From: a virus
Taxonomy: Duplodnaviria > Heunggongvirae > Uroviricota > Caudoviricetes
DNA length: 64,000 bases
IMG/VR virus record: IMGVR_UViG_3300042890_002891
Span: 194,831-258,830 of that record
Strand: one strand, 5' to 3'
Shown here: positions 5,680 to 28,949 of the stretch, piece by piece
Layout of the letters: each line of letters opens with the position of its first letter
How positions within the stretch are numbered: position 1 is the stretch's first letter
The notes under the pieces: model-generated
The model's database searches: none
What the model was told of the DNA's origin: nothing
The model's input: the letters and a program-made list of their open reading frames with translations, nothing else
Program-made: the position numbers and the translations under genes

Positions 5680-6813
5680 TAACTGCTGTAGATTTCTCAT
5701 CACATTCCCAGTATTTTTTTGATTGCTCAGTGCTGAGGTCAGTCCTGGAACATTTTGTTCGATTAGTGTGCGGCTAACACTGCTGTTCATGATTTGACCT
5801 TTTGCCAGTTCTAAAGGCAAGCGCAGGCACAACTTAAACAATTCAAGATCTCTCAGAGGAGTCCAGGTCAGGGTGTTTCCAATATGCCAGTGTTGCCAAT
5901 CATTCACAACGGTATTGCACACTGACCAATTAAAATCTTGATCTGTGGCAGGTTGATAGTTACACATCTGATCAGAAAATACTTTCACATGCTTTTGTAA
6001 CTTGAAATATTCTCGATGTAAGCAATCGGGATGTTCCATTAGCAATTGCAAAACACTAGAGCCATGATGCATCAGGTACTGATTGGCAGTGACAGGGCTG
6101 CGTAGCATAAATTCGTCGCCGGGTGCACCTGATGCCAACACACACGGTTCTTGCCAGTGATGTATTTGTCGATATCCCCAATTTTTGCAAATATCAGCAT
6201 GGTTTGCCAACCAAAATGCATCATGGTCACAGTGCTCTGCCCAGACCAATTCATGCGGAATCTGATATCGGCAAAGATAACTATACACCAGTAATGTATC
6301 TACGCCACCACTTAAAAACACACGTATTGGCTCTGTTACCTGTTGCGCATACTGTTGAATTTTTTTACACAGCAAGATATCAATATCATCAACAGTTGAA
6401 TAACCAGTATCGATGCTGCCAATCACATCAAACTTGTGTTCGGTCACTGCAAGATCTGCATGTACTGTGATCAAGCTGTCAGTCCAGGCAGTGCGGTCAG
6501 TTGCAATCAAATTGTTTATGCCGGCGTCATTGATATAAATTGGGAATCCGCGATAGCGATCAGACTGAATTGTTAGTGTGTCATTTACAACAACCAGCGC
6601 ACAAAAATTGCCAGTCAGATGCGGCGTGCTCTGAAACATTATCTGACCAAGTAGCGATTCTAAAGGTCCTGCGTCTGCGTAGCCTTTGTACAAAATTTGC
6701 ACAGGACCAATAGCAAACTGTTTCCATCCGGGATCGGTACTGATTGCAAAACTACTCAGTTGCCACTGGCATGGGTAATTTTCTTGTGGCTGCTGGCTGA
6801 TATGGAAAAACAT
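5671..6813 (-). CDS. asparagine synthetase-like PP-loop amidoligase lacking the N-terminal glutaminase Cys
   Basis: SGGVDT PP-loop motif at about residue 160 of 380, as in the AsnB C-domain or lasso cyclase. The N-terminus is MFFHIS, with no Cys2. Start overlaps the clpP stop as TAATG. Confidence 0.6.
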   Translation of the reverse strand: MFFHISQQPQENYPCQWQLSSFAISTDPGWKQFAIGPVQILYKGYADAGPLESLLGQIMFQSTPHLTGNFCALVVVNDTLTIQSDRYRGFPIYINDAGINNLIATDRTAWTDSLITVHADLAVTEHKFDVIGSIDTGYSTVDDIDILLCKKIQQYAQQVTEPIRVFLSGGVDTLLVYSYLCRYQIPHELVWAEHCDHDAFWLANHADICKNWGYRQIHHWQEPCVLASGAPGDEFMLRSPVTANQYLMHHGSSVLQLLMEHPDCLHREYFKLQKHVKVFSDQMCNYQPATDQDFNWSVCNTVVNDWQHWHIGNTLTWTPLRDLELFKLCLRLPLELAKGQIMNSSVSRTLIEQNVPGLTSALSNQKNTGNVMRNLQQLLS

Positions 6814-7403
6814 TATCTAGTGGTCAGTATCTTGTCAGCAAGTCCGTAGTCTACGGCTTCTTGCGCACTCATGAAATTGTCGCGCTCCATGTCTGCTGTG
6901 AATTCTTCAAATGTTTTGCCTGCTGAGTTATGTTTGACATAGATCTCAGTCAGCACCTGTTTCATCTTGAGAATTTCTGTGACCTGGATCAGCATGTCTG
7001 TGGCCTGTCCACGTGAGCCGCCCGAAGGTTGATGAATCATGTGACGAGCGTTGGGCAAGATAAATCGCTTGCCTTTAGCACCAGAACTAGCCAGCAATGA
7101 TCCCATTGAGCAGGCCTGTCCCATCACAATGGTCTGCACATCAGGCTTGATAAACTGCAGGGTATCATAGATGGCCATGCCTGCTGTGACGCTGCCGCCG
7201 GGTGAGTTGATATACAAACTGATATCTTTGTCAGGATTCTCACTTTCAAGAAACAACATTTGTGCCACAATCAAACTGGCACTATGTTCGTCTACATCTG
7301 AGTCCAGCATGATAATGCGTTCTCGAAGCAAGCGACTGTAGATGTCGTAGCTGCGTTCGCCTTTGCTTGTGGATTCAACAACAATTGGTACTAGATTTGG
7401 CAT
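6813..7403 (-). CDS. clpP: ATP-dependent Clp protease proteolytic subunit ClpP
   Basis: 196 aa with a canonical Ser/His/Asp triad context ([23 protein letters not shown]); RBS AAAGGAATATC. Confidence 0.85.
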
Positions 7404-8380
7404 GATATTCCTTTTTGGATTTTTTGTTTCTGACTATGAACATAATCAGTGAAGTGATGTTTATTGTATAGTATTTTTTCACTAAGAGCAAGAAATTTGG
7501 CTTGCCAGTACTCAGGTGTCTGGTCACACAACACTCCAAGGAATCGGTGCATGGCCGCTGGCTCAGCAAGGTTCAAGTCGGTGATATCCGCAAAGTCTGC
7601 AACATACGGTTCAAACCCTCGATCTGTTAGCCAGCGGGTGCCGCCATCAGGATCATACACCAAAAACGGTCTACATCCTACTATGGGTTTGTAGATTTTT
7701 TCACTTACAAATCCAGTCTGATTGATATCGAAAAACGTTTCAGTCACAATGTTTACCAGGTGTCGTTGCCAATTTTGCATGTGGCCCAGACTCACTATAT
7801 CATTGGGTACGCCGTAATGTGTGGCAGCAGCGTTGGGTGCAAGATTGTCCGGCTCGCAATCAGTTGGCAAAGATCTTACTGCTGAACCAGTGCCTCCCAT
7901 GCTTACTATACCACGGTCCAACAAGTTACTGGCTTCAAGTCTTTGATACAGCTTTTGTCTATGCCAGTGTGGCTTGCGATTCAAACACATGTAGGCTGTA
8001 TCAATCAGAGACGGATCCATTAGAATATCCAATGATGGTGGATTTAAAAATTCATCCACGAACACTGCACAAAAATCCACAGCATGTGGTCCTGCATAAT
8101 ATCCCACAGTCGATATTTCACATTCAAACTCACTATACCAATCAGCAGCAGGAATAGCCGCATCTAACATGGCAATCAGCACAATACAATCAACTGGATT
8201 GTTACGCAACCATTCCAGTACTTGTTCATGATATTGTTTGGTATACCATACAGAATTGATAACAACAGTTCTAGAAGAGTCGGCAGATATGTGCGTGAGC
8301 ATGCGATCAACTATGTGTGTTTCAAACTTCTTGAGTGGAAACTGCAAGCCCCAGCCGTTGTCAAATCTTTGAATAATCAT
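7391..8380 (-). CDS. glycosyltransferase-like protein, paralog A (TEK motif, fucosyltransferase/GT10-like)
   Basis: C-terminal [17 protein letters not shown] is shared with two other genes in the window. Confidence 0.5.
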
Positions 8381-9386
8381 GGTCTAGTATATTGGTTTGA
8401 TTGTTACAAATGTCCGCAAGATGTTGCCGATTGTATTGAGCTATCTCATGTGCAAAACTTAATATTCGTTTTTGTTCTGCACGGCCGCACTCCAGCAAGG
8501 TGCGCATACTTTGTTGCATAAGTCGCCAACGATCGGCACCTTCATACAGGTCATAACTTTCATCCCAGATGCTGTGATATGTTTGGAACCCTATGCTGCG
8601 CAATCTTGCTAGATAGTAACGTGGTGCATATACCAACATGGGTTTGGCAGCCATGATAGGACGTATGGTTTTTTCAGTAGGAAAGAATGTATTTCCTAAG
8701 GTGTAAGTTTCACACACTATCTCCACAGCAAAATTGTGATAGTGCTGCAACAAACTAGTATTGGTTTCTGCTGATGATGCAGGAGTAGCAAATTGATCTC
8801 TTACTGATTTGTTGTCCACACTGGTCACAATCCGTTGATCATACCAAGCAAACATCCGGGCCTGATCATACAGTGATAACCAGTCTGATATGTTTTCTAA
8901 ATCGTGAACATCACCTATCTCTCGTTTCCAAGGAAATGGTTGTATGTGATTCATCATGCTGGCAAAAAGACTAGTGCTATGTGCTTGATACAGAATAGCA
9001 GCTCTGCTGAGTGTAATTCTTCCAACAAACAATCCAAAAGGTTGTTGATATTCTAGTTGTTGTTCTAGTGTGGGTTCTGTGTGTTGCCAATAATCCTGAA
9101 CCATGAAGAAAAAATGACTTATCTTGCTGCATTTCACACGCTGGTATGGCACAAATTCTACAGGATTGCTCCATCCTATTAACTGCACAGTATCAGGAGT
9201 TTGTTTCCTAGCCATGAGCCAGGCGTTGATTGATTTGGTTATGCCCAGTGCCGACAAGCTAGGACCCTCTCCACGTAGGTCCAAGACCAGTGGTTCTCCA
9301 GGTGGGTGCTGATTAAGTTGTTGTTGAAATTGAGTAGGATTATTCCAGCAATCGCCGCTGAATTCTATTGCTATAGGTTCTGTCAT
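8361..9386 (-). CDS. glycosyltransferase-like protein, paralog B
   Basis: TEKTIRPIMAAKPMLVYAPRYYLARLRSIGFQTYHSIWDESYD aligns with paralogs A and C. Confidence 0.5.
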   Translation of the reverse strand: MTEPIAIEFSGDCWNNPTQFQQQLNQHPPGEPLVLDLRGEGPSLSALGITKSINAWLMARKQTPDTVQLIGWSNPVEFVPYQRVKCSKISHFFFMVQDYWQHTEPTLEQQLEYQQPFGLFVGRITLSRAAILYQAHSTSLFASMMNHIQPFPWKREIGDVHDLENISDWLSLYDQARMFAWYDQRIVTSVDNKSVRDQFATPASSAETNTSLLQHYHNFAVEIVCETYTLGNTFFPTEKTIRPIMAAKPMLVYAPRYYLARLRSIGFQTYHSIWDESYDLYEGADRWRLMQQSMRTLLECGRAEQKRILSFAHEIAQYNRQHLADICNNQTNILDHDYSKI

Positions 9387-9416
9387 TCCAATACTTATGG
9401 TGTCACTAAATACACC

Positions 9417-10961
9417 ATGAGAGATTTAATCAACGTACTTGACAGCATAATAACTGAGGTGACCATCAGTAAACCCAAATATGGACCTGGCACTCAATTT
9501 TCTGTTTCCACAGGGTCAGAAGCTGGAAAAAAGTTACTGACATTGTTGCAGCAACAAGGATTTGATGCTACTCCGCCATTGACCAGGCAAGACGACACAG
9601 AATTGAGCGAAAAAGATATCTTAAATCTCCCCACAGTTACATATGGAAAAGGCGGCGACGGTTATATTTTTTCCAATAATGCTGGACAGTCTGTTTTGAT
9701 TGTTGGCAGTTCTAGTACCATTGGGGCAGCGTTTAATGTGTATACTGGAGCCACTGCCGACGACGATGTTGGGAAAATTGCCAATCGCGGCGAAACAGCC
9801 GAAGGTATTCTGGGCGCTGCTATGTTTGCTAAATTCACCAAACGTGAATCTGACGAAGATATCGGCACAGTGACCGCTCAGGACATCGGCAATGTGCTTG
9901 ACAGTTTAAAGCAAACCGGTGAGGATCAATATCAAGTGGAAGTGGAAGATTTTGATAATGAACATGCGGATGTGATTTCGTTTGTGCTGAGACTTAAATC
10001 CGGGCCGTATCAGGATCTCATGGATCCTGCCAAGCGACCGCTGTTGGCCAGTGAATTCTCCAGTGCCGCTGCTTATGTCAACAGTTCGGACGCTGAACGA
10101 TACAGCAAGTATTTTTATATCAATGGCAGGTCAGATCAGATCGTGATCATGGCCGATGGCGTCACAGGTGAAACAGAACAAAAGACCGATGTGTGGGTGT
10201 TTGTCACTGATGAAAATGGCCAGCCACGTAAACTTAGACTCAATACCAGTCTCAAGGTAGGTGGTATTAAACAGTTTGGACAAGTGGGTGGCGACAGTGC
10301 AGAAACCCAACAGATCTTGTGGAATTATTTTGGTGTTGATGCAAGTTCTGCGTTGGCCAAATTTACCAAGGCAATGAAATCCAATTCACCAACAGCAACA
10401 AGAGATGCATTCAAACAAATATATCAATATGCTGCTACCGAACTAGACAACAAATTGAAAAACGCCAGACCTGAAGATGAAGCCAACATAATTGATGCCA
10501 TTGCCACTGGTATCACACACTTTGCTACACTGGGCGATCCCAATGTTGAACTGGTGGACTTCAGCGATGGTGGATTCAAGATTTTGAGATTCAACAAGCT
10601 GGTTGAAAAATTAAAGAATACAGATCTTGAAGCCACTTACGTTGATAAAAAAACTTGGCCAGAAGTGGTCATTCATGAACGCGATAACCCTAATAATAAA
10701 CTGCTGACCATCAGGATGAAAGTAGAGAACAAACCCAAGGGCGGTATCTATGTTCGCACTTACATTGAAAAGGGTCCGCTGTTGGAAAAACTCACCGAAT
10801 ACCGAAAAGCCAGTTGGGACAATGCTCCAGCTGCTACTGGTGCCGAAGATCTAGATGCAGTTACCGGCACACCAAGACTATCGGGTCCTGGTGCACGAGC
10901 AGCAAAGACAAATCGCGAACCCAGAATGGATCGTGCCACCCTAGGGCGCGAGCGTCGTTAA
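9417..10961 (+). CDS. acidic 514 aa hypothetical protein ending in LGRERR
   Basis: Start set at the first ATG after the divergent gene start (the ORF track opens at 9306). The C-terminal ...ATLGRERR is shared with 48717..49601. Confidence 0.55.
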   Translation: MRDLINVLDSIITEVTISKPKYGPGTQFSVSTGSEAGKKLLTLLQQQGFDATPPLTRQDDTELSEKDILNLPTVTYGKGGDGYIFSNNAGQSVLIVGSSSTIGAAFNVYTGATADDDVGKIANRGETAEGILGAAMFAKFTKRESDEDIGTVTAQDIGNVLDSLKQTGEDQYQVEVEDFDNEHADVISFVLRLKSGPYQDLMDPAKRPLLASEFSSAAAYVNSSDAERYSKYFYINGRSDQIVIMADGVTGETEQKTDVWVFVTDENGQPRKLRLNTSLKVGGIKQFGQVGGDSAETQQILWNYFGVDASSALAKFTKAMKSNSPTATRDAFKQIYQYAATELDNKLKNARPEDEANIIDAIATGITHFATLGDPNVELVDFSDGGFKILRFNKLVEKLKNTDLEATYVDKKTWPEVVIHERDNPNNKLLTIRMKVENKPKGGIYVRTYIEKGPLLEKLTEYRKASWDNAPAATGAEDLDAVTGTPRLSGPGARAAKTNREPRMDRATLGRERR

Positions 10962-11530
10962 CGTCCCAGTGTGGATATTGCATCGCAGATGTGCAGTTCC
11001 AGAGCCTGAGTAGCATCAAGCCAAACATCATGTGGTGGCAACAGCTTGGCCCGAACAGTTTCATCATCAAGCCCGGTACAGTCCCGGTAGTGCTGTATCA
11101 TGCGCTTTTGTGTAAGCTCAAATTCACGCATGGTAGCAAACAATTCATGCACCTTGCCATCGCTGCCCCAGCTGAACTGGTGACTCAGGATACTGGTGTT
11201 GGGAGTAAGGATTCTACGTCCCGGGGAACCTGCTAGAAATATCAAGAGTCCTGCACTGGCAATCTGTCCCAGTCCCACTGTTTTGACCGCAATAGCACTG
11301 CTGCGCATGACATCAATTAGTGCAAAGGCAGCACTCATGTCTCCACCTTCTGAGCAGATCATCAGCAGGAGTTCTTTGCGCTTTTTCTTGACCACATAGT
11401 TTTCATGCAGAATCCACTCTATCACTGGTTTGATACTGTCATGGTCTATTTCACCCATGAGTACCAGCATGCCTGAGTCGGCCAGCCGTTGGGTGTGTGA
11501 TTGATCTAGATTTTCAGTTTCTGTGGCCAT
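10958..11530 (-). CDS. second ClpP-like protease subunit (ClpP2)
   Basis: 190 aa; GQIASAG (Ser), ILSHQFS (His) and PPHDVWLDA (Asp) align with the clpP triad; divergent from ClpP1. Confidence 0.65.
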   Translation of the reverse strand: MATETENLDQSHTQRLADSGMLVLMGEIDHDSIKPVIEWILHENYVVKKKRKELLLMICSEGGDMSAAFALIDVMRSSAIAVKTVGLGQIASAGLLIFLAGSPGRRILTPNTSILSHQFSWGSDGKVHELFATMREFELTQKRMIQHYRDCTGLDDETVRAKLLPPHDVWLDATQALELHICDAISTLGR

Positions 11531-11593: not shown

Positions 11594-12166
11594 TTATTGC
11601 TTTTGTGTTACAGTGTCCAGTTCTTCAAACGCTTGTTGGCTACGACCCTGGGCTTGTGCTTGCAGTCGTATCTGATCCTGACGTTTTTTCAGCACATTGG
11701 CATCACCTGTTGGCAGGGCCACCAGCACATAGCTACGGAATCTGGTGCCATCAGCAACTCGCTTGATTTCTTTGGTTTCGACCCCGGTAATATCCACGCC
11801 TGGGCACATGCCGCGAATGGCAATTTCACTGGTTTCGTGGCTGGCTTCAGATGTGTCCATCATAAAAATCTTGGATTGCTGACTGACTTTTCCGCCTGCT
11901 GCCATGCAAATCTTGCCATACGCAAACAGCTTGGCCTTGTAGTCTGCCATGCTCATGTCTGTGCTGACTGCACTGCCATTGGCATACACTGCACTGTTAC
12001 TCACAGGCAGTTCAGTCATCCATTTAGGTGCTCGATCAATAGCAGATGTCACTGCTTTTTCTTGTCGCTGACGTTCTTCATAGGCACGCCGTTCGTACTG
12101 TTCTTTGGGGGTTGAGCCACATGCGGCCAACAAGGCCACAGTAACCAATGCAATAAAATATTTCAT
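11594..12166 (-). CDS. lipoprotein (190 aa)
   Basis: Signal peptide plus lipobox LLAAC-GS; hydrophilic mature region. Confidence 0.55.
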   Translation of the reverse strand: MKYFIALVTVALLAACGSTPKEQYERRAYEERQRQEKAVTSAIDRAPKWMTELPVSNSAVYANGSAVSTDMSMADYKAKLFAYGKICMAAGGKVSQQSKIFMMDTSEASHETSEIAIRGMCPGVDITGVETKEIKRVADGTRFRSYVLVALPTGDANVLKKRQDQIRLQAQAQGRSQQAFEELDTVTQKQ

Positions 12167-16724: not shown

Positions 16725-16764
16725 AGAGCTATTTAGCTGCAAAATCGCTAAACAATACTCAATT

Positions 16765-18226: not shown

Positions 18227-18274
18227 GGGGTATTTAAGCAGAAGTTCGCCCCAATAATGTTACAGTTGTGTTAC

Positions 18275-18433
18275 ACTATATCTGTACCAGAGTCCATCGG
18301 GCAGTAAATGCCTTGCCAGCAGCCTTGTGTTTCAGAATTTTTCGATATTCTTCTTGACGAAGTTGTTGAATCTTCTTGTCATCGTGGTCAACGCAGGCTC
18401 GGTATAATTTTGTGATCAATTTTGATTGTTTCA
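18275..18433 (-). CDS. small basic protein (52 aa), not in the ORF track
   Basis: [52 protein letters not shown]; RBS AAGGATGGG; promoter-like TTGGCA-16-TATAAA upstream. Confidence 0.3.
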
Positions 18434-18484
18434 TAAGTTGCCCATCCTTGAAAACTATTTATACCGTTAGTGAAATAATTGCCA

Positions 18485-18509
18485 ATAAAAAAGAGCCCTT
18501 GGGGCCCTT
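18485..18509 (-). terminator. rho-independent terminator after pstS
   Basis: Minus strand AAGGGCCC-CAA-GGGCTCTT followed by TTTTATT. Confidence 0.5.
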
Positions 18510-18554
18510 AGTGCTGGTTACGAGTTCCAGCCTCCGCTCAATCTTGCGGTCGGT

Positions 18555-19550
18555 TTAGTGTAGTGCCAACCGTTTCCAGTCTGCACGAATCTTGTTCTTC
18601 ACTGCTAAAGGCAATGCCACATAGTCTAGGTCATCTGCTGCTCGATCTCCACTGGCAAATGCCCAGTCAAAGAAAGCAATAGCAGTTTTGGATTTAGCAG
18701 CATCTTCGGGTTTCAAATACACTAGGATAAATGTAGCACCTGAGATGGGCCATGCTTCTTTGCCTGCTTGATTGGTTAGAATCTGAAAGTATGTTCGGTT
18801 CCAGTCAGCATTTGCGGCAGCTGCCTTGAATGATTCTTCTGTGGGTGCCACCCAGGTGCCAGCAGCGTTCTGTACATTGACCCAGTTCATCTTGGTTTGT
18901 TTTACATAAGCAAATTCAACATAGCCCAGTGTTCCTGGAAGTTGTCTAACCATGGCAGCAACACCTTCGTTGCCTTTGCCGCCTGCTCCAACTTTCCAGT
19001 TGACTGCTGTGCCTTCACCAATGGTGTCTTTGAATTCTTTAGATACCTTGCTGAGATAGTTGGTCCAGATAAATGTAGTTCCTGATCCATCTGCTCTGCG
19101 AACCACAGTGATTGCTTGGTCAGGTAATGCTAATGAGGGGTTTAGTGCCCGGATAGCAGCGTCATCCCAGCGAGTAATTTTGCCTAGAAAGATATCAGCA
19201 AGCAATGTGCCTGTGAGTTTCATTTGTCCAGGTTCGATGCCCTTGACGTTGATCACAGGAACCACGCCGCCAATTGCTGTGGGGAACTGGAATAGTCCCA
19301 GATCTTTTAGTCGATCATCTGTGAGTGGCATATCACTTGCACCAAACGTGACTGTCTTGGCTTCAATCTGTTTGATACCTGCACCTGAGCCAACTGACTG
19401 ATAGTTGATTTTGATGTTGGTCACGCGGTTGTAGTCACTAGCCCACTTTGAATACAACGGAGCCGGAAATGTTGCACCGGCTCCTGTAACTTCTTGTGCT
19501 GTTGCAGAAACTGCAACAACTGATAATAGAATAGCTAATAATTTTTTCAT
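18555..19550 (-). CDS. pstS: phosphate ABC transporter substrate-binding protein PstS
   Basis: Signal peptide. GAGATFPAPLY, SGTTF and the overall sequence match proteobacterial PstS (about 330 aa). RBS AAGGAGTCAAG. Confidence 0.9.
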   Translation of the reverse strand: MKKLLAILLSVVAVSATAQEVTGAGATFPAPLYSKWASDYNRVTNIKINYQSVGSGAGIKQIEAKTVTFGASDMPLTDDRLKDLGLFQFPTAIGGVVPVINVKGIEPGQMKLTGTLLADIFLGKITRWDDAAIRALNPSLALPDQAITVVRRADGSGTTFIWTNYLSKVSKEFKDTIGEGTAVNWKVGAGGKGNEGVAAMVRQLPGTLGYVEFAYVKQTKMNWVNVQNAAGTWVAPTEESFKAAAANADWNRTYFQILTNQAGKEAWPISGATFILVYLKPEDAAKSKTAIAFFDWAFASGDRAADDLDYVALPLAVKNKIRADWKRLALH

Positions 19551-19588
19551 CTTGACTCCTTGTTAGTACATTTATTTAATGACTAAAA

Positions 19589-19606
19589 TGTTACAATTTT
19601 GTTACA
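19589..19606 (-). promoter_or_regulatory. Pho-box-like direct repeat (TGTAACA-AAAT-TGTAACA) upstream of pstS
   Basis: Two 7 bp direct repeats at 11 bp periodicity, 39-56 nt upstream of the pstS ATG, with an AT-rich -10 region downstream. Confidence 0.4.
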
Positions 19607-19898
19607 CAATTTGCAGAATCATGCGAACCAGTCCCACCATGTCTATGCTCACCAACAGGATGTAGTTAGCCAGCATACCAAAAGATTTCCTAGTATAACT
19701 AGCCCAAGCATACATGGCACAACCAGTGATCCAGATAGGATACATGTACAACAACGGAGGGTTTGGGACGGTGATCGCCATTGTGATCGAGCAGCCAATA
19801 GACACTGCCCAAGCCACAATCTCAACTGCAAAACGCACAGGGTAAGTTTTATAGTCATCTCGTATCCAAGAAAAAATGTTGGGTAGTATATCGTTCAT
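19602..19898 (-). CDS. integral membrane protein (98 aa, about 3 TM)
   Basis: Hydrophobic helices; ATGA overlap with the upstream gene. Confidence 0.5.
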   Translation of the reverse strand: MNDILPNIFSWIRDDYKTYPVRFAVEIVAWAVSIGCSITMAITVPNPPLLYMYPIWITGCAMYAWASYTRKSFGMLANYILLVSIDMVGLVRMILQIV

Positions 19899-20932
19899 GT
19901 CTGGGCCAGTCGCTGATTGTACACCTGCTCACTGGCAAGATTCTTGCCCTTGGCCTCACACTGAATATCCCACTGATCACCAAATGTCAGGGCCCATTCA
20001 TTGCAGGCAGTGTTCCACATCATATCGCTGTGTGCCCGGAGCTTCTGCTTTTTAAAACCTGCTGCAAGTAGTCCAGCAAGATCGGGTCGAACTCGGTGAT
20101 CGTGACCCACCAAAATATCTTCACGGCTAACACTGTAGTGAAGAGCAGGACGAACACCACGCCAAGACTCAACAACCCGTTGCGCACGAGGGTCCGCAGG
20201 CGTGATGTATTCTCCGGAGTTGATCCAGTGATGGTGTATGTCCAGCACAAGAGCCACATGCTCAGCCACAAGTAAAGTAGAATCGATGCCATTTGTCATT
20301 TCGTCATTTTCGATGGAGATAAGATTCCTGGCCTCGGAACTGAGGCGACCCAAGGTCTTTAGGAATTTAGTGACACCACCTTTGCCACTTAAATGTACAT
20401 TTATCTTGAATCCCGAGTCATGCCAACTTTTTCCATAGCCCATCCAGCGGGCCATGTCTGCATGATACTCAAATTCCAGGATACTGCGTTCCACAATCAC
20501 GTCATGCTCGCTGGCCAGCACACAAAACTGTCCGGGATGGAAGCTGAGTCGCACACCCAGTCTGCGGGCAGTTTCGCCCACAGGAGCAAAGATCCGTTCA
20601 CAGTGATCTTGTATCTCTTTGCGCTGCCACCAGTCGATCCATGAAGGTTCAGTATAGCCTTGCAGCATTTCTGAACCCAGCCGTACCATTCTACGACCTT
20701 CAGGCAGGGTAGCCACTCGTTCAATCATGCGAACTGCTGCTGTGGCATTGTGATTCATTATGTCCCATTGCCGCTGTTCAGCTTCATCCTTGTGCTCTCG
20801 AAGCCAGCGCATGGTGGTTGATCGGCCGTTTAGTTCACGGTCCACAGCATTGACTTTCATGCCGCCGCATTCGGACGGATCATTGAGCCATTTGCAACAA
20901 AAACCAATTTGGGGTATAGTCATATCAATCAC
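19895..20932 (-). CDS. TIM-barrel sugar-phosphate isomerase/endonuclease superfamily protein, possibly a UvdE-like UV damage endonuclease
   Basis: 345 aa; ISIENDE and HH motifs typical of the xylose-isomerase-like/UVDE fold; the assignment is tentative. Confidence 0.4.
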   Translation of the reverse strand: MIDMTIPQIGFCCKWLNDPSECGGMKVNAVDRELNGRSTTMRWLREHKDEAEQRQWDIMNHNATAAVRMIERVATLPEGRRMVRLGSEMLQGYTEPSWIDWWQRKEIQDHCERIFAPVGETARRLGVRLSFHPGQFCVLASEHDVIVERSILEFEYHADMARWMGYGKSWHDSGFKINVHLSGKGGVTKFLKTLGRLSSEARNLISIENDEMTNGIDSTLLVAEHVALVLDIHHHWINSGEYITPADPRAQRVVESWRGVRPALHYSVSREDILVGHDHRVRPDLAGLLAAGFKKQKLRAHSDMMWNTACNEWALTFGDQWDIQCEAKGKNLASEQVYNQRLAQT

Positions 20933-21473
20933 TGTTGTTGTTCAGTAATTGTAACACATTTGGTAATAAATCTCTAGTGATATTGGAGAGTTTTTGGATA
21001 GGCTCGTCAAGATTTTTTGGATGATCCACTATCACCCACTGTTTTCCGCTGTCACGAATCGACTGCGCTAACAATCCAATATAGTTGTTTCGGCTGACCT
21101 TTGCGTTGGGTTTGGATTCCAGGTCAAACCCCACCATGATTATGACATCTGCCACACTGGCCGATAAATGAGCAGCCACAATGTCATCCACAGAATCCAC
21201 AACAAAATCAAATGCTCCGCCAAACACATTAACACGCGGCGGTTTGTGCAGAGTTTCATAAACAGTTTCTGGAATGTAAAGATTGCATACATCAGCGTAG
21301 CCTTGCTCGATCAACACCGCTGCTTGGTCGGCATCCCAGCACACCACATTGTCAGTTTGATATGCTCGTTGAGTGCGCCAGCTGCCCCAGATGGGTGCAA
21401 TGTCACGCATGGGTTGTGTGTCCTGACCCGGCGGCAACAGAGTATTTTCAGCCAACAGCCAGGCTATATTCAT
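20925..21473 (-). CDS. hypothetical protein (182 aa)
   Basis: ORF in the sugar cluster operon. Confidence 0.45.
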   Translation of the reverse strand: MNIAWLLAENTLLPPGQDTQPMRDIAPIWGSWRTQRAYQTDNVVCWDADQAAVLIEQGYADVCNLYIPETVYETLHKPPRVNVFGGAFDFVVDSVDDIVAAHLSASVADVIIMVGFDLESKPNAKVSRNNYIGLLAQSIRDSGKQWVIVDHPKNLDEPIQKLSNITRDLLPNVLQLLNNNSD

Positions 21474-22399
21474 GGCTCTCTATGCAGATCTAGAGTCACA
21501 CAATGAAAACCGCCGCCCAGCGTTCTGCTGTGACGCAGTTCTAGCGGAATAACTGTCATGCCCATGCCCTGTTCCAGAGCCTGTATCATGGCTTGTTGTT
21601 TGGCATCAACTATGACTGTATGAGGATCAATGCTCAACATGTTGAGTCCAATCCATTTTGAAGCATACGGATATTGATAGAATCCTTGTGCCACCACTTC
21701 GTCAACAAAAAATATCTCTTTGCCCTTGAGATGTCGTGGTAGATCTTTTCTATTCCGATCTAGCCTGCTGCCATTCACAACAAATTGTTCTGCATTCAAG
21801 GCCACAATAGTCGAATCAATATGCACACCAGCATAGAAGTTGCACAGTTCAATATCCACATCAGGAAACTGATTGCACAACCATTCGTATGCTGCTCGAT
21901 TGCCTGAGGCTGATTCAAGAAACAACCACTTGTGTTGTGTCACACGCAAAATATTAGCAGCGTCTAGAACCATGCCTGCAGCTCGTGGCATTGTGATAAC
22001 TTGATCTGCTGCTTGTAAAATATCATGATAACACTGTAGTTCCATATCTCTACAAGGATACATCATGGCAGGATCGACCACAATTGACCCATGCACAATT
22101 AGTCTATCACGCGGACAGTAGTTGTAGAGGCCATCGTGGACCTGAAAATTCAGTGGATCCGGACGTACTACTTCAACACCGTGTGCTGTCAACGTGTCTG
22201 CCAGCGTTTGCAGGTCTTGATTGGCTTCGTCTATGATCCATTGTGGCACAGGACCAGCAGGTAGAGGTGTTTCTTTCCAGAGTGTACGCTCTGCTTCTGA
22301 GCTAAACACCGGATCGTTGACAGGCCAGTTTGCATGACTAGCGTCGCCGACCACTATGCTCTTGAGTGTACTGTATTCATCGTGACTGAAAATTTTCAT
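21470..22399 (-). CDS. amidinotransferase-superfamily enzyme
   Basis: C-terminal GGGFHCVTLDLHR, the catalytic Cys context of the glycine/inosamine amidinotransferase and arginine deiminase fold. Confidence 0.55.
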   Translation of the reverse strand: MKIFSHDEYSTLKSIVVGDASHANWPVNDPVFSSEAERTLWKETPLPAGPVPQWIIDEANQDLQTLADTLTAHGVEVVRPDPLNFQVHDGLYNYCPRDRLIVHGSIVVDPAMMYPCRDMELQCYHDILQAADQVITMPRAAGMVLDAANILRVTQHKWLFLESASGNRAAYEWLCNQFPDVDIELCNFYAGVHIDSTIVALNAEQFVVNGSRLDRNRKDLPRHLKGKEIFFVDEVVAQGFYQYPYASKWIGLNMLSIDPHTVIVDAKQQAMIQALEQGMGMTVIPLELRHSRTLGGGFHCVTLDLHREP

Positions 22400-22917
22400 G
22401 CGGTCCCGGTTAATTGTAGAGTATAGCGATCAGTTTTGCCAACGTTGGCGGCCAGGTGTAAGAAATCATCGCGCCAGCTGACCCAATCACCAGCACGCCA
22501 ATTGGTAATAGGAGCACCGTTCATTTCCAGGTAATGCCCACTGTCCCAGTCTTCTAAGAACACAATGGTACGAACCACTGACTGTGTTGATTCAAGCCCG
22601 TGTATGAGTTTGAATCTGTTGTAGCTGTCTCTGTGTGCTGGTAATACTGTACCTGGCGACATACAATACACACTCCATCCTAGCTTGGTCCAAGGAAACT
22701 TGTCACAGATAGATTGCATCCAGACAGGCTCAGGGAAACGCATGTCATACATGTCCCCGGTAAATTTACTTTGCGTATATCCCAGCTGACGCCATTCTGC
22801 TAGACTTTCTCGATCATTGAACTGTTCGTTTATATAGACAAGCTCACGATGTTGTAGACCCCAGGTAACATCTATATGCCCCTGGACCCAGATGTTATTT
22901 TGGTCGAGTGTTGCCAT
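22396..22917 (-). CDS. cupin / Fe(II) oxygenase-like protein
   Basis: PAHRDSY (HxD) ... FLHLAANVG (distal His) arrangement. Confidence 0.4.
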   Translation of the reverse strand: MATLDQNNIWVQGHIDVTWGLQHRELVYINEQFNDRESLAEWRQLGYTQSKFTGDMYDMRFPEPVWMQSICDKFPWTKLGWSVYCMSPGTVLPAHRDSYNRFKLIHGLESTQSVVRTIVFLEDWDSGHYLEMNGAPITNWRAGDWVSWRDDFLHLAANVGKTDRYTLQLTGTA

Positions 22918-24133
22918 AGTGAACGACTTCGTACTCCGCAGTTGAAGTCAGTTTGCGCCAAGGATCAACAATAATGCTGCCCGGTTTGATAGCACAGTAG
23001 GGTTGGGTATCCAATTGGTCGCCAGTGTATTCATACGTGATTTTGCGATTGTGTGCCCAAAGAAACACCGCAGGGTAATCCACACTGTCAACCACGTGGG
23101 TTCGATCATCTGCAAGAGGATCAATATAGACCACTTGGTGCCCTGCTTGTTCTAGATAAAATCCAACCAGGGTACTGTAACTGCCAATGCAATAAGGAAC
23201 GTCTGGCTTGTATGCTTTGCCATGAATCACCACAGGCAGACTGTGCAATGCAGCTTGATCAATCAGGAACTGAGCCAAGTTTTTGGCTTGTATTTCTCTA
23301 GCATGCATCACAGTATCAAACAAATCGTAGCCAATGTTGTATTCTTCTGCTAACCAACGCAGAGCAATGTTATCACGTGGATGACAAGCACCTGCATCGC
23401 CCATGCCCGCTGTCATGTACTTGGGTCCCATGATACGCATGGTACTACGAGCCAAGGCATCTGTGACCACATCAACATTGATGTGTCCAATACGTAGAGC
23501 AAAGTCCTGAATCATGTTGACCAGACCAACTTTGGCACTGATGAATGTGTTGTAGAAAATTTTAATGGCTTCGCATTCGTCCCAGGTGCCAATTTCGTAG
23601 CGTGGATTGTTTGCCATAATAGTCTTGTACAGATCAATCAGTTCGCCTGCTAGAGCATTGGGGTTGCCATCTTCGGTGCCAATCATGACCATTTCTGGGT
23701 TGACCATGTCCCATTTGACCGATCCCATGGCAATTAGATAAGGGTTATACAGGAACTGATGCTGTGGATCCAGCAGTGGGAAAAACTTGCGGCGTGTGGT
23801 CCCGGGCAATACTGTACTGATCAACACAATCTTTTTTGGACTAGTTGCATATTTGTTTATGTTCTTGATAGCGTCAATCACAGCATCGTGACCAAAGTCT
23901 TTGGGTTTCATATGGCTGCTTGGAACAGATCCATCGTAACCTTCCTGGTGTGGAGTTGGCACAGCAATAAAGATCCACTCGCTTTGATTCACAAGTTCGT
24001 CTATGTCACAAACTTTCACTGAGTCACTGATTCGCGGGTAAATATCATATCCCCGTACTGTGTGCTGTTCAGCAAAAACTTCTGCACAGTCCAGGCCCAA
24101 TTTTCCAATTCCAATAAATCCAATATTCTTCAT
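22895..24133 (-). CDS. nucleotide-sugar 6-dehydrogenase (UDP-glucose/GDP-mannose dehydrogenase family)
   Basis: N-terminal MKNIGFIGIGKLG Rossmann motif and the catalytic-Cys motif GACHPRD. Confidence 0.65.
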   Translation of the reverse strand: MKNIGFIGIGKLGLDCAEVFAEQHTVRGYDIYPRISDSVKVCDIDELVNQSEWIFIAVPTPHQEGYDGSVPSSHMKPKDFGHDAVIDAIKNINKYATSPKKIVLISTVLPGTTRRKFFPLLDPQHQFLYNPYLIAMGSVKWDMVNPEMVMIGTEDGNPNALAGELIDLYKTIMANNPRYEIGTWDECEAIKIFYNTFISAKVGLVNMIQDFALRIGHINVDVVTDALARSTMRIMGPKYMTAGMGDAGACHPRDNIALRWLAEEYNIGYDLFDTVMHAREIQAKNLAQFLIDQAALHSLPVVIHGKAYKPDVPYCIGSYSTLVGFYLEQAGHQVVYIDPLADDRTHVVDSVDYPAVFLWAHNRKITYEYTGDQLDTQPYCAIKPGSIIVDPWRKLTSTAEYEVVHYGNTRPK

Positions 24134-24135
24134 AT

Positions 24136-26574: not shown

Positions 26575-26582
26575 TCCCGAAC

Positions 26583-26891
26583 TTATTCGGCGTCAGGCTC
26601 TAGTTTGATCTGTAATGGATACTGCTGCTTTCTTGCACTTTCAGTAACCTCTACGCCTTTTTGTTCGGCGATTTCATAAGGCAACACTGCAACAATAGCT
26701 GATCCGTGCTCATGTATGCTTACAGTGAGTTCTGTGGCAGTTTCTTCAGTATAACCAAAAAATTCCACTAGACTCTCTATCACAAATTCCATGGCAGTGG
26801 TGCTGTCATTGATATAGATCACACGGTAAAGAGACGGCTCCTTGATGGCTTTTTTTGTTTTTGAAATAGTTGCTGCTTCTGCGTTTGCCAT
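26583..26891 (-). CDS. clpS: ClpS, the N-end-rule adaptor of ClpAP
   Basis: Core YRVIYINDSTTAMEFVIESLVEFFGY...ELTVSIHEHGSAIVAV matches ClpS (about 100 aa). Start at the ATG after AAGGAACAAC. Confidence 0.75.
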   Translation of the reverse strand: MANAEAATISKTKKAIKEPSLYRVIYINDSTTAMEFVIESLVEFFGYTEETATELTVSIHEHGSAIVAVLPYEIAEQKGVEVTESARKQQYPLQIKLEPDAE

Positions 26892-26945
26892 GTTGTTCCT
26901 TATGGAGTGGTGGAACAGTTCCACCACTGTATTTACACAATTATA

Positions 26946-27392
26946 TTATACTGCGTATGTGATTGCAATACTTTTAGGCTTGGCTGACTCAGGAACTTTG
27001 CGTTCCAGATACACAGTCAAGATACCATTGCTGATGCTTGCGCCGTTTACTTCCACATGCTCACTGAGTGGGAATGTTTGTTTAAAGTCGCGTTGTGAAA
27101 TACCACGATGTAGATATTCGTGAGCTTGATCTTGTTCTGTTGCTTTGGCACCAGAGATCACCAACTGACGTTTATCCAGACTGATATCAATTTCTCCTTC
27201 AGCAAATCCAGCCACAGCAACTTCAATGGTGACAGTGTCGTCGCCAGTTTTGATCACATTGTGGGGAGGATAGTTTGTAGTGGCTTGATGCTGTGTGACA
27301 CGCATAAGGTCGTCAAATAGATTATCAAATCCAATTCCAAACTTGTGAATTGCAGGAATATCGAAACTACGAAGGGTGAGAGTTTTTGTCAT
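26946..27392 (-). CDS. ibpA: small heat shock protein Hsp20 (IbpA-like)
   Basis: AIGFDNLF, YPPHNV, AVAGF, GILTV alpha-crystallin domain; about 148 aa. Confidence 0.85.
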   Translation of the reverse strand: MTKTLTLRSFDIPAIHKFGIGFDNLFDDLMRVTQHQATTNYPPHNVIKTGDDTVTIEVAVAGFAEGEIDISLDKRQLVISGAKATEQDQAHEYLHRGISQRDFKQTFPLSEHVEVNGASISNGILTVYLERKVPESAKPKSIAITYAV

Positions 27393-27475
27393 GTTTTTCT
27401 CCTATTAAGCAAGATGACTAGTGTAGACCCCACCATGGGCATCTACCGCAGTATTTATTATACTACAGATCAGAA

Positions 27476-27736
27476 TTATATTTTGTTATTTAGGTCAGAT
27501 ATCAGTCGGTAATTTGTCCAGCTTGGGTACTTTGGGTCCAAGACCCAGGTCAGCCCAAACAATGTGTAATACTCGTCCAAATCAAAAGTTACTCGTAACT
27601 TGCATTTGATTATTTTTGTCTTGTACTCGACGTTGTACTTGTTTGCCCAGGTGGCCAGTTTTTTAGAAACTGTGCCCACTGCATGTGCTGCTGTCTGACC
27701 GCCACCATCCTTTGACCATGCAAATTCAATGTACAT
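27476..27736 (-). CDS. hypothetical protein (86 aa)
   Basis: ORF directly downstream of clpX. Confidence 0.4.
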   Translation of the reverse strand: MYIEFAWSKDGGGQTAAHAVGTVSKKLATWANKYNVEYKTKIIKCKLRVTFDLDEYYTLFGLTWVLDPKYPSWTNYRLISDLNNKI

Positions 27737-27737
27737 T

Positions 27738-28949
27738 TTAGCTGTTTACAACCCGGAGTTCCTCGGGTTCTGCCACCTGATCCGTGTCAATTGACAGCAC
27801 AGCAATGCCTTGCTGGCGGTATTGTGCAAGATGAAACATGTGCGGCAACAGCACACGTTCTAGTTCGCTGTGCAGACCACGTGCACCAGTTTGATTGACC
27901 AAGGTGCGCTCCGCAATCTCATCCAGTGCCGCCACAGTAAACGTCAAGTCCACGCCATCTTCAGAAAATAGCCAACGATACTGATCCACATAGTTATTCT
28001 TGATCTCTGTGAGAATTCTAATCAGGTCCGCTTTGCTGAGTTGTTTCAAACTGACCCAGTTGGGAAAACGTCCAACAAATTCCGGAATCATGCCAAACTT
28101 CACCAGGTCATCTGGTGTGGTCATGTCCAGATCGGTATCAATAGATGTTTTTGCAACCTTGGCGTTAAAGCCAATGGAGGTTCCTTGCACACGATTTTTC
28201 ACTATGGTATCTAGCCCCACAAATGCGCCACCAGCAATAAACAAAATGTTGCGAGTGTCAATTTCAATCATGTCACCACCAGGATGCTTTCTGCCACCAC
28301 CTGCTGCTGGAATACGACACACAGTGCCTTCTACCATTTTTAACAGGGCCTGTTGTACACCTTCGCCTGACACATCTCTAGTGATCGACGAGCTTTCGCC
28401 CTTGCGAGCAATTTTGTCAATCTCATCCACAAACACAATACCCTGCTGTGTCTTGGCCACATCGTTGCCTGATGCAGCATACAATCTAGTGATTAGACTT
28501 TCCACATCGTCACCCACATATCCTGCTTCAGTGATACTTGTGGCATCAGCAATGGCAAATGGCACATCAAGATAACGTGCCACTGACTTGGCCAACAAAG
28601 TTTTGCCTGAGCCAGTGGGTCCTAACATCAAGATGTTGGCTTTGTCCATTTCTGGATCAGTTGTGGTCTTGCTGATGCGTTTGTAATGATTCACAATGGC
28701 CACACTGATCATGATCTTGGCAGCGTCCTGACCAATCACATACTGATCCAGATAGTTCTTCAGGATCATTGGATCTAGTTTGGCTGATGGTGGTTCGGGT
28801 GGCACAACTGGTTCGTCAGTTGACAACAGTCCCTGACAAAAATCCACGCACTCGTTGCAGATGCCTGCATACTCGCCAACAATAAGTTTACGCACGTCAT
28901 CTTTATTTTTGCCACAGAAGCTGCATGAGGAATGGGTTTCTTTGATCAT
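27738..28949 (-). CDS. clpX: ATP-dependent Clp protease ATP-binding subunit ClpX
   Basis: N-terminal C4 zinc finger CSFCGK...CNECVDFC, Walker [12 protein letters not shown]+ motifs. Start placed after the upstream stop (TAAAATAATG). Confidence 0.9.

Follow-up and report, generated by a model that had tools for sequence, protein, structure and literature searches.

What use would a large phage have for a Clp system of its own? The DNA that we analysed (the window, 64,000 nucleotides) is a fragment of an uncultured jumbo phage whose genome is roughly 340 kb. Its lineage includes over 400 viral contigs, some of them up to 365 kb long, and the phage context in the window comprises genes for RNR, DnaB, primase, ligase, and PstS, as well as tailspike-like genes. 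A sequence-only reading had identified ClpP, a second ClpP, ClpX, ClpS, and an IbpA-like Hsp20. All five open reading frames lie at the positions it gave, on the minus strand, and the identities hold: ClpP1, ClpP2, ClpS, and Hsp20 score above their Pfam cut-offs, and ClpX above that of an NCBIfam equivalog. These genes and the associated features are:

6813..7403, minus strand: ClpP1, a canonical ClpP proteolytic subunit of 196 amino acids with no propeptide (PF00574, NF001368)
9417..10961, plus strand: orf551, a syntenic neighbour of the ClpP genes (phrog_3560, E = 5.7e-38)
10958..11530, minus strand: ClpP2, a divergent and near phage-specific ClpP paralog of 190 amino acids (PF00574, catalytic triad)
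26583..26891, minus strand: ClpS adaptor, 102 amino acids (PF02617)
26946..27392, minus strand: Hsp20, an IbpA-like small heat-shock protein of 148 amino acids with a C-terminal I-x-I motif, here IAI (PF00011)
27387..27453, minus strand: two-hairpin 5' leader of Hsp20, a candidate short ROSE-like RNA thermometer (ROSE_3, covariation)
27476..27736, minus strand: orf86, a small conserved protein that is specific to the lineage and encoded between ClpX and Hsp20 (109 homolog clusters)
27738..28949, minus strand: ClpX unfoldase, 403 amino acids, with a zinc-binding domain and an AAA+ module (NF003745, TIGR00382)
28954..30366, minus strand: membrane and coiled-coil protein of 470 amino acids, a conserved upstream neighbour of ClpX (homolog in locus L119)

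The Clp genes had been described as lying in three places, but they form two modules: ClpP2...ClpP1 (6813-11530) and ClpX-orf86-Hsp20-ClpS (26583-28949). ClpP2 and ClpP1 are on the same strand and at most 5 kb apart in 71 of 80 loci that we anchored on ClpP2, and in 74 loci in total; their neighbourhood persists in these 74 loci despite variable inserts and altered gene order, and in some loci nothing separates the two genes. The order ClpX-(orf86)-Hsp20-ClpS is retained in 75 of 80 related loci, across proteins that have diverged to 55-60% identity. Hsp20 is immediately upstream of ClpS in 79 of the 80; the two were correctly called as an operon. In one locus (L119), a single cluster contains all of the Clp and chaperone components. 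Every locus that we compared belongs to one lineage, so the synteny partly reflects shared descent. We conclude that this phage carries a proteostasis island of two conserved modules.

We propose, with moderate confidence, that the island encodes a phage protease of ClpX, ClpP1, and ClpP2, a ClpS that acts on ClpA, and an Hsp20 that is controlled by its leader. The likely net effect would be to control protein quality and turnover during a long, protein-heavy infection.

ClpX and ClpP1 would together make an autonomous ATP-dependent protease. ClpX scores 505 bits against the NCBIfam equivalog NF003745 (cut-off 359) and 485 bits against TIGR00382 (cut-off 371). Its zinc finger matches PF06689 (48 bits, cut-off 27), and it aligns to E. 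coli ClpX with E = 8e-120; the full architecture of zinc finger plus AAA+ module that had been ascribed to it is correct. The protein in the window has the CxxC...CxxC zinc finger, Walker A and Walker B, GYVG, RKH, and IGF motifs. Among 57 unique ClpX sequences from the lineage, IGF and GYVG are present in all 57, the zinc finger in 56, sensor-2 in 55, Walker A in 54, RKH in 52, and Walker B in 51. ClpX in the window has every motif that is required for unfolding substrates and for docking to ClpP.

ClpP1 is a canonical ClpP with an intact catalytic site. It scores 270 bits against PF00574 (cut-off 20.2) and 309.5 bits against NF001368 (cut-off 249), and it falls slightly under the cut-off of the equivalog TIGR00493 (297 bits versus 308.6). 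Its sequence shares 65% identity with mature E. coli ClpP, and the Ser, His, and Asp of the two line up, which bears out the earlier claim of an intact triad; these residues (Ser99, His124, and Asp175) do not vary in 66 unique relatives. The gating hairpin motif at the N-terminus is conserved. In the pocket for docking of IGF/IGL loops, L48, F49, Y62, F82, I90, and L114 are retained, and Y60 is replaced by S. ClpP1 might also be able to work by itself.

ClpP2 is only 26% identical to ClpP1. It matches PF00574 (97 bits, cut-off 20.2) but is under every NCBIfam cut-off; its best score against a ClpP subfamily is 92 bits, versus a cut-off of 228. Its Ser92, His117, and Asp168 align with the catalytic residues, as had been claimed, and neither the triad nor the oxyanion Gly varies among 67 unique relatives. 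Its N-terminus is 8 amino acids shorter and does not have the gating-hairpin motif, and it has conserved changes in the docking pocket (F49H, Y60L, Y62M, F82S, L114T, and L189S). As judged from these alignments, ClpP2 is a catalytically intact paralog that does not have the features for docking to an unfoldase. Outside phage and metagenome sequence, ClpP2 is nearly absent: in cellular genomes we found only seven matches among 185,579 species, and every one is on a MAG contig. The predicted structure of ClpP2 is poor (pLDDT of 62, and under 50 in the handle region), and the top 50 PDB neighbours of this low-confidence model in Foldseek are all cellular ClpPs. Its best match among solved structures is ClpP1 of Listeria (4jcr/4jcq, E = 2.5e-15), which pairs with a second subunit in a known heterocomplex.

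Do the two ClpPs form one core? The sequence-only reading suggested a heteromeric P1/P2 protease. This is plausible, as ClpP2 resembles the atypical subunit of bacterial systems in having neither the gating hairpin nor the docking pocket, and the synteny described above gives comparative support; but the pairing is not obligatory. Like Pseudomonas aeruginosa and Listeria monocytogenes, 74 syntenic loci encode two paralogs together, one standard and one atypical without docking features. In P. aeruginosa, the greatest divergence of the atypical subunit is at its N-terminus, and ClpX does not dock on it, which leaves only singly capped complexes (PMC13056064). The asymmetry between the phage proteins at the N-terminus and the docking pocket matches this description. 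ClpP2 might therefore be an accessory ring, as in P. aeruginosa, giving a singly capped ClpX-ClpP1(7)P2(7) with an altered cleavage output. There are also differences from the bacterial pairs, whose hetero-oligomers are established where that of the phage pair is our inference. ClpP2 is only about 25-27% identical to their atypical subunits, so it represents an independent phage clade; and its triad is complete, unlike that of wild-type Listeria ClpP1, which has Asn at the Asp position.

If the phage makes no P1P2 heterocomplex, then ClpX would work with homo-tetradecamers of ClpP1, and ClpP2 would act elsewhere, perhaps by capping a ring of host ClpP (to re-specify or dampen it) or as a stand-alone peptidase. 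ClpP1 is similar enough to E. coli ClpP that it might mix with host subunits. Also, the two genes do not always occur together: in 11 loci, all from one sub-lineage, ClpP1 is found near ClpS but ClpP2 is missing; conversely, three loci whose flanks are complete (L075, L076, and L079) lack a ClpP1 close to ClpP2, as do BUCT-ZZ01 and RsoM2USA for their ClpP2-like gene. On the other hand, ClpP1 and ClpP2 are neighbours in 74 loci, with less than 200 bp between them in six, and in the known ClpP1P2 systems the atypical subunit is inactive by itself (PMC13056064). We consider separate roles for the two ClpPs to be rather unlikely, and we favour the mixed core.

ClpS would dock on a ClpA, probably the host's, and redirect ClpAP from its usual substrates to those that are aggregated or carry an N-degron. 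The gene product matches the ClpS profile (PF02617, 87.7 bits, cut-off 23), as the earlier reading expected, and scores 89 bits against NCBIfam equivalog models, short of the 149 required. We prefer the ATG start, which has AAGGA 7 nt upstream; the longer open reading frame, from a GTG at 26927, is less likely. We take the N-degron pocket to be N34, D35, D36, T38, M40, and H66 of E. coli ClpS (Erbse 2006, Schuenemann 2009) and the contacts to the N-domain of ClpA to be E79, E82, and K84 (Zeth 2002). All of these are retained in the window except D36, which is S. N34, D35, T38, H66, E79, E82, and K84 show no variation among 60 unique relatives; M40 is mostly retained; position 36 is not conserved (N in 52 of the 60); and M62 is T in all of the relatives. 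ClpS is thus predicted to retain most of the N-degron pocket and all of the residues that contact ClpA. We found no ClpA in the window, in the 10 kb beyond each end, or in 2.85 Mb of DNA from the lineage, but about three quarters of this type of genome lies outside the DNA searched. The earlier suggestion that the phage relies on the ClpA of its host is plausible, given the invariant docking residues and the lack of ClpA in that DNA, but it is unproven: ClpS-bearing jumbo phages in culture tend to encode ClpA as well, and the DNA at hand covers the smaller part of a genome of about 340 kb.

Hsp20 would hold unfolded proteins. It scores 59.6 bits against PF00011 (cut-off 20.8) and 135.7 bits against phrog_432. 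In NCBIfam it comes closest to IbpA (118 bits) but stays short of the equivalog cut-off of 212, so we describe it as IbpA-like and not as an ortholog of IbpA. The leader in front of it consists of hairpin I followed by a UUGCU anti-Shine-Dalgarno (anti-SD) motif that pairs with the AGGAG SD. It aligns to the full length of the Rfam model ROSE_3, but its 17.4 bits (E = 0.084 for 101 nt) fall well short of the gathering score, 43; ROSE_3 ranks first of 4227 Rfam families on this stretch. Hairpin I is 98% paired across the lineage, with compensatory changes at five of its seven pairs and a covariation of 0.265, versus 0.137 in shuffles (none of 500 reached the observed value) and at most 0.052 in slid controls. 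The anti-SD:SD helix is 97.9% paired. Both motifs occur in 56 of 57 unique leaders (the anti-SD is U(U/C)GCU in 55 and UUGCC in one; the SD is AGGAG in 55 and AAGAAG in one). A custom covariance model recovered the element ahead of Hsp20 at virtually every locus, and a second copy ahead of an inserted DnaK in exactly the seven loci that have DnaK. In ViennaRNA, which does not model non-canonical pairs, pairing of the SD has a small excess over controls (0.64 versus 0.53), and nearest-neighbour folding from 15 to 45 C gave no clear temperature dependence.

Short ROSE-like thermometers lie in the 5' UTRs of small heat-shock genes and have U(U/C)GCU imperfectly paired to the SD in a 3' hairpin (PMC3669281). 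Like the ibpA thermometers of Pseudomonas (RF02523, ROSE_3), the phage leader is in the 5' UTR of an IbpA-like gene, is about 60 nt long, and folds into two hairpins; the first (hairpin I) is rich in GC and has about seven conserved pairs, one of which flips between G-C and C-G; and U(U/C)GCU is opposite the SD in hairpin II (PMC3669281). Unlike those elements, its hairpin II is shorter, AU-rich, and without G-C pairs flanking the SD core; its AUG region may be paired to a GUCAU further upstream, while the Pseudomonas elements leave the start codon free; and it resides in a phage genome, with a second copy ahead of a phage DnaK. The leader is a candidate ROSE-like thermometer, whose hairpin would conceal the ribosome-binding site of Hsp20 and raise translation with temperature or stress.

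Three other genes accompany the modules. orf86 is present at 41 of 80 loci. Its N-terminal YIEF (Y2-F5) is invariant, M1 is nearly so, and the C-terminal DLNNK is nearly invariant. It has no Pfam domain, and its AF2 model is a ferredoxin-like fold (pLDDT of 90.4) with no significant neighbour in the PDB. Upstream of ClpX, whose ATG at 28949 is 4 nt past the stop codon of the preceding gene, the 470-amino-acid protein had no match in Pfam or PHROG, and a homologous open reading frame of 480 amino acids is immediately upstream of ClpX in L119. A promoter-like site lies inside this gene (29105-29077, TTGACA-17-TATACT, 11 of 12 positions), but promoter counts overall were at chance. orf551 has matches with at least 35% identity at 32 of the 80 ClpP2 loci, and its homolog in L119 sits between ClpS and ClpP1; its link to the Clp system is unproven.

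The island could instead be a set of loosely coupled passengers from a host, which supply extra Clp and chaperone activity of a generic kind and reprogram nothing in a phage-specific way; the leader would then combine a strong ribosome-binding site with a hairpin for transcript processing or termination. All of the components except ClpP2 do closely resemble bacterial housekeeping proteins, their genes are scattered in cultured relatives, and the leader is below the ROSE_3 threshold and is not predicted to respond to temperature. We find this improbable, given that a tight operon order has outlasted so much protein divergence, that ClpP2 is near phage-specific and has conserved substitutions of its own, that the same leader was duplicated before a second chaperone gene, and that the anti-SD motif is retained in nearly every leader.

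We find it very improbable that ClpP2 stands outside any ATP-dependent protease and serves as a prohead (head maturation) protease of the ClpP-like kind: it does match PHROG families of head maturation proteases (phrog_94, E = 2.9e-19) and NCBIfam Clp_rel_HeadMat (NF045542, 52 bits), and a distant homolog in RsoM2USA is followed by a highly charged, scaffold-like open reading frame, but the NF045542 score is far under the cut-off of 120 bits and lower than that for ClpP subfamilies, neither in the window nor in the 80 related loci is ClpP2 next to portal, capsid, or scaffold genes (it is found beside ClpP1, a lipoprotein, and orf551 instead), a C-terminal scaffold extension is missing, the structural neighbours of its low-confidence model are cellular ClpPs, and the ClpP2-like gene of phage Phosso lies by MutT and IF-1.

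Our preferred explanation, a coordinated phage proteostasis system, has precedents among annotated genomes. The remark that complete phage Clp systems are barely characterised is true of their function, but it overstated the novelty, as similar sets are annotated in Atu_ph07, Phosso, and phage G. Agrobacterium phage Atu_ph07 was reported to have ClpX, ClpP, a Clp-protease-like protein, ClpS, ClpA, ClpB, and Hsp20 (PMC6102473, PMC7824862). Sinorhizobium phage Phosso has the same inventory as the window, with identities of 69.5% for the ClpP1-like protein, 49.7% for the ClpP2-like protein, 46% for ClpX, and 43% for ClpS. In both of these phages the Clp genes are scattered singletons (for instance, ClpX is by topoisomerases), unlike the two conserved modules of the window's lineage, which are one cluster in L119. 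Both also encode ClpA, which did not turn up in the lineage DNA that we searched, and the structured leader of Hsp20 is a further difference from their sets. Phage G has a ClpP-ClpX pair, and its paper describes no second ClpP paralog, ClpS, or Hsp20 module. What this lineage adds is the conserved modules with their atypical second ClpP; the conserved protein orf86; and the covarying, two-hairpin, ROSE-like leader before Hsp20, which in some relatives is duplicated before an inserted DnaK.

All five genes that the sequence-only reading named are present, all on the minus strand, and a profile search confirmed each of them. With orf86, a small ORF between ClpX and Hsp20, they lie in the window as follows:

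6813-7403, minus strand: ClpP1 (PF00574, 270 bits; NCBIfam NF001368, 309.5 bits against a cut-off of 249)
10958-11530, minus strand: ClpP2 (PF00574, 97 bits; under every NCBIfam ClpP cut-off)
26583-26891, minus strand: ClpS (PF02617, 87.7 bits)
26946-27392, minus strand: Hsp20 (PF00011, 59.6 bits; the best NCBIfam model is IbpA, 118 bits against a cut-off of 212)
27476-27736, minus strand: orf86
27738-28949, minus strand: ClpX (passes both ClpX equivalog models, with 505 and 485 bits)

We prefer the start codons of that reading over the maximal ORFs: the ATG of ClpS at 26891 has AAGGA 7 nt upstream, the ATG of ClpX at 28949 lies 4 nt past the preceding stop, and the start of Hsp20 has an AGGAG site. 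The expected motifs were also found. ClpP1 shares 65% identity with mature E. coli ClpP, and its Ser, His, and Asp align in place with those of solved structures, as do Ser92, His117, and Asp168 of ClpP2. ClpX contains the CxxC...CxxC zinc finger, Walker A and B, GYVG, RKH, and IGF; across the lineage, IGF and GYVG are each kept in 57 of 57 sequences and the zinc finger in 56 of 57. The alignment of ClpS with its E. coli counterpart extends across the whole core.

On balance, we lean towards reading these genes as a phage proteostasis island, with ClpXP1, an accessory ClpP2, ClpS, and an Hsp20 under a ROSE-like leader all taking part; the motifs, triads, and synteny are observed, and we infer every assembly and every substrate. 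ClpX and ClpP1 would form an autonomous protease, and ClpP2 would be an optional accessory ring that alters capping and cleavage. ClpS would re-specify a ClpA, probably the host's, and Hsp20 would act as a holdase. We also considered a broader proposal, which we think rather unlikely: a self-contained, stress-gated programme of proteolysis and chaperones that tunes the turnover of the host proteome to the environment. A ClpP2 ring invented by the phage would then cap the ring of phage ClpP1, or even one of host ClpP; the resulting ClpX protease would be singly capped and have a new cleavage output, and ClpS would take over the host's ClpA. A phage ROSE-like thermometer would couple the synthesis of Hsp20 (and, in some relatives, of DnaK) to temperature, and orf86 would be a new accessory factor for ClpX or for the small heat shock protein.

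The catalytic triad is invariant across 66 unique ClpP1 sequences and 67 unique ClpP2 sequences, and the oxyanion glycine of ClpP2 is also invariant across those 67, so ClpP2 is under selection as an active peptidase and not as a ClpR-like dead subunit. In the alignments, the two proteins contrast sharply at the predicted unfoldase-docking sites. ClpP1 keeps the N-terminal gating hairpin and the pocket residues L48, F49, Y62, F82, I90, and L114, whereas the N-terminus of ClpP2 is 8 residues shorter, without the hairpin motif, and its pocket has conserved non-aromatic residues (F49H, Y60L, Y62M, F82S, L114T, and L189S). The best solved match to ClpP2, in an alignment that includes the short N-terminus, is Listeria ClpP1, which is known as the partner subunit in a ClpP1/P2 heterocomplex. 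The atypical ClpP2 of P. aeruginosa forms only inactive heptamers when alone and is active within ClpP1(7)P2(7); it does not bind ClpX, and it diverges most from ClpP1 at the N-terminus (PMC13056064). Judging from sequence, the pair in the window fits this pattern.

It is also possible, but we think unlikely, that ClpP2 acts with the host's ClpP or alone, in favor of which ClpP2-like genes stand alone in BUCT-ZZ01 and RsoM2USA. In the lineage itself, ClpP1 is on the same strand and within 5 kb of ClpP2 in 71 of the 80 ClpP2-anchored loci, and the exceptions are mostly contig ends. When all related loci are counted, 74 have both genes, in either order and with gaps of 25-4959 bp (under 200 bp in six loci). 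Eleven loci of a more divergent sub-lineage have ClpP1 near ClpS without ClpP2, and three loci with full flanks have ClpP2 without ClpP1; the pair is common, not obligatory. As for BUCT-ZZ01, this is a cultured T4-like Synechococcus cyanophage, and its ClpP2-type protein (UTS52046.1; L337:4959-5525) is 49.7% identical to the window's, has an intact triad, and is annotated just as "hypothetical protein," with no canonical ClpP nearby.

The Clp genes had been described as lying in three places, which was not borne out: they form two modules, one with ClpP2 and ClpP1 (6813-11530) and one with ClpX, orf86, Hsp20, and ClpS (26583-28949). The order ClpX-(orf86)-Hsp20-ClpS is kept in 75 of 80 ClpS-anchored loci, and Hsp20 directly precedes ClpS in 79 of them. 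In L119, a locus from the divergent sub-lineage, every part is in one cluster (a membrane protein, ClpX, Hsp20, ClpS, a phosphoesterase on the other strand, a homolog of the phrog_3560 protein orf551, ClpP1, and ClpP2). The neighbours are the same as in the window, so the window's two modules look like one older cluster that was split by insertions of ~15 kb. Scans for promoters and terminators in both modules gave chance-level results, so we place the operon boundaries solely by gene spacing and synteny.

Several other genes lie in, near, or between the modules. The orf551-type protein (~510-550 amino acids; 9417-10961 on the plus strand of the window and L119:11392-12921) remains beside the ClpP genes in loci with a rearranged gene order too. 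Directly upstream of ClpP2 is a 190-amino-acid ORF (11594-12166, minus strand) with a lipoprotein-type signal sequence (MKYFIALVTVALLAACGS) and no Pfam match, which is conserved at this position in about 31 of 80 loci. The start of another ORF without a Pfam match (5671-6813, minus strand) overlaps the stop of ClpP1; its SGGVDT motif resembles that of PP-loop ATP-pyrophosphatases, and it adjoins a radical-SAM protein on the opposite strand (4426-5679, plus strand). A few genes upstream of ClpX is an SPFH/Band-7 protein (31593-32396, minus strand; PF01145, 56.9 bits), from a family to which the HflK/C regulators of FtsH protease also belong. Between the modules lie a sugar-modification cluster (15187-24133, minus strand; a family-2 glycosyltransferase, a UDP-glucose dehydrogenase-like protein, a metallophosphoesterase, and an Asp/Arg-hydroxylase-like ORF) and a nutrient-uptake auxiliary gene, which encodes a PstS-like phosphate-binding protein (18555-19550, minus strand; phrog_5385, E = 2.2e-70). 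In L081, Hsp20 (4517-4966) is just 50% identical to the window's, while ClpX and ClpS from the same contig are 98% identical, which points to replacement of Hsp20 by another allele in an operon that is otherwise almost unchanged.

The 67-nt 5' leader of Hsp20 (27387-27453) has ROSE_3 as the region's best Rfam match, over the full model length, but scores only 17.4 bits where the gathering score is 43; no Rfam family reached its gathering score within the window. Lineage-wide, an anti-Shine-Dalgarno sequence (U(U/C)GCU in 55 leaders, UUGCC in one) lies a few bases before the Shine-Dalgarno sequence (AGGAG in 55, AAGAAG in one) in 56 of 57 unique leaders. All of these form hairpin I, from 40 distinct sequences. 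In an alignment fitted to a purpose-built covariance model, hairpin I is 98% paired with compensatory changes at 5 of 7 pairs, and its covariation score is 0.265, as compared to 0.137 for shuffles (0 of 500 reached 0.265) and at most 0.052 for slid controls. An independent run of RNAalifold on a MAFFT alignment found double changes at 4 of 6 pairs. The helix between the anti-Shine-Dalgarno and Shine-Dalgarno sequences is 97.9% paired and invariant, so it gives no evidence from covariation. The architecture matches that of the short ROSE-like thermometers with two hairpins in Pseudomonas ibpA, and flipping of a hairpin I pair between G-C and C-G is common to both (PMC3669281). Unlike those thermometers, the leader has no G-C pairs flanking the core of the Shine-Dalgarno sequence.

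It is quite unlikely, we believe, that the Clp and chaperone genes are loosely coupled passengers and that the leader is not a thermometer. Partition functions from ViennaRNA did not show temperature-dependent opening of the Shine-Dalgarno sequence, and the folding energies predict no clear temperature dependence. A second copy of the leader lies directly before a phage DnaK gene that is inserted between orf86 and Hsp20 in seven related loci, and these are exactly the loci with DnaK. That two chaperone genes share the leader supports a role in stress-type regulation. (DnaK/Hsp70 is at L103:7458-9410, with 629 amino acids, and in L106, L108, L110, L125, L129, and L153.) In a limited literature search, we found no phage with a reported ROSE-like element.

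That ClpP2 is a prohead protease is very unlikely, as this is weakened by its profile scores, its neighbours, and its structural matches (the top 50 neighbours of a low-confidence model are all ClpPs, with zero prohead proteases). This AlphaFold model (pLDDT of 62, and under 50 in the handle region) is too poor for judging the ring-ring interface.

Within the proposed island, orf86 is a real, conserved, lineage-specific protein with 109 homolog clusters. Across 41 aligned homologs, the N-terminal YIEF (Y2-F5) is invariant and DLNNK near the C-terminus is nearly so. Its predicted structure is a confident ferredoxin-like fold, and a fold search returned nothing but generic proteins with a ferredoxin-like fold and de novo designs, at E = 0.09 or worse, with no informative neighbour. 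It may serve as a docking tail or as an accessory factor.

Across 60 unique relatives of ClpS, N34, D35, T38, and H66 are invariant, as are E79, E82, and K84; at the position of D36, the window has S and most relatives have N. The roles of these residues, including E79, E82, and K84 as contacts for ClpA, are those described for E. coli. ClpS is a specificity switch on ClpA, which requires the N-terminal extension of ClpS (PMC9663308). It had been suggested that the phage's ClpS would work with the host's ClpA, and in the DNA that we searched, which covers about one quarter of this ~340 kb genome type, we found no ClpA or other Hsp100: not within the window, not in ~10 kb past each end, and not in 2.85 Mb of DNA from the lineage, where the sole matches were weak cross-matches to ClpX. 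Probing viral contigs with ClpA from E. coli and from Phosso gave no contig of the lineage among the best 80 of 211 and 262 matches, which is a weak result. However, cultured jumbo phages with ClpS generally encode ClpA too (the PA5oct group, Phosso, and Atu_ph07). Action of the phage's ClpS with a host ClpA is plausible.

The source of the window is an abundant, uncultured lineage of jumbo phages that is very common in public metagenomes. At least 423 viral contigs in IMG/VR carry relatives of ClpP2, and many of these contigs are 200-365 kb long; relatives of ClpS are in at least 570. Large contigs of the lineage include IMGVR_UViG_3300031787_007614 (364 kb) and 3300023184_000024 (352 kb). 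One protein of the window is indexed in 429 blocks of a public assembly collection. Against 50,697 phage records, the ClpX region had zero megablast matches, so no near-identical phage is deposited there. The window also encodes a class Ia ribonucleotide reductase, DnaB helicase, primase, an ATP-dependent ligase, a PstS-like protein, a radical-SAM enzyme, a pectate-lyase-like tailspike fragment, and many ORFans. Almost all of these genes lie on the same strand, and the window has no tRNA genes. A 293-amino-acid ORF (37319-38200, minus strand; Pfam Porin_4, a Gram-negative porin family, 85 bits, E = 8.6e-24) looks like a phage-encoded outer-membrane porin, which implies a Gram-negative host.

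We rejected bacterial contamination or a mis-assembled host fragment because of the phage-like context, the viral related contigs, and the absence of ClpP2 from cellular genomes: across 185,579 species there were just seven relatives, all on MAG contigs of scattered phyla, which indicates mis-binned phage DNA. Two of these (L242, NZ_JBBAKG010000031.1, and L243) are from a MAG labelled Haliscomenobacter, with ClpP2 at 97% and 71% identity, and the remaining matches are spread over MAGs from five further phyla. Such contigs probably belong to phages and were mis-binned into bacterial MAGs. For Haliscomenobacter, we read the match this way because the genes have strong Shine-Dalgarno sites and the window has a Gram-negative porin.

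Genome papers have listed Clp components of phages, but their function is not known to have been studied. This lineage is an abundant and experimentally tractable case, with a module that is compact and small enough to synthesise. It holds a standard ClpP, an atypical but catalytically intact ClpP, a full ClpX, ClpS, and a small heat shock protein behind a candidate RNA thermometer. If ClpP2 is part of a heteromeric core, then the ClpP1P2 principle would extend to viruses, and if the leader senses temperature, it would be a new case of environmental sensing by a phage. If the parts merely supplement the host's housekeeping, then the finding would be an ordinary one.

Overall, the observation made from sequence was confirmed and its interpretation partly supported, but its claim that such systems are barely characterised overstated the novelty, as Atu_ph07 and Phosso have the same inventory. 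ClpX, a ClpP, a Clp-protease-like protein, ClpA, ClpB, and ClpS were reported from Atu_ph07 in 2018 (PMC6102473). A comparative review from 2021 described ClpP, ClpS, ClpX/ClpA, and Hsp20 in jumbo phages and proposed that phage ClpS feeds the host's ClpAP (PMC7824862). Phosso has ClpP1-like, ClpP2-like, ClpX, ClpS, and ClpA genes, scattered over 469 kb. Given these precedents, the inventory of Clp genes is not new. We found no paper on a ClpP1/ClpP2 pair in phages; what we add to the known systems is the conserved modular layout and the asymmetry between ClpP1 and ClpP2.
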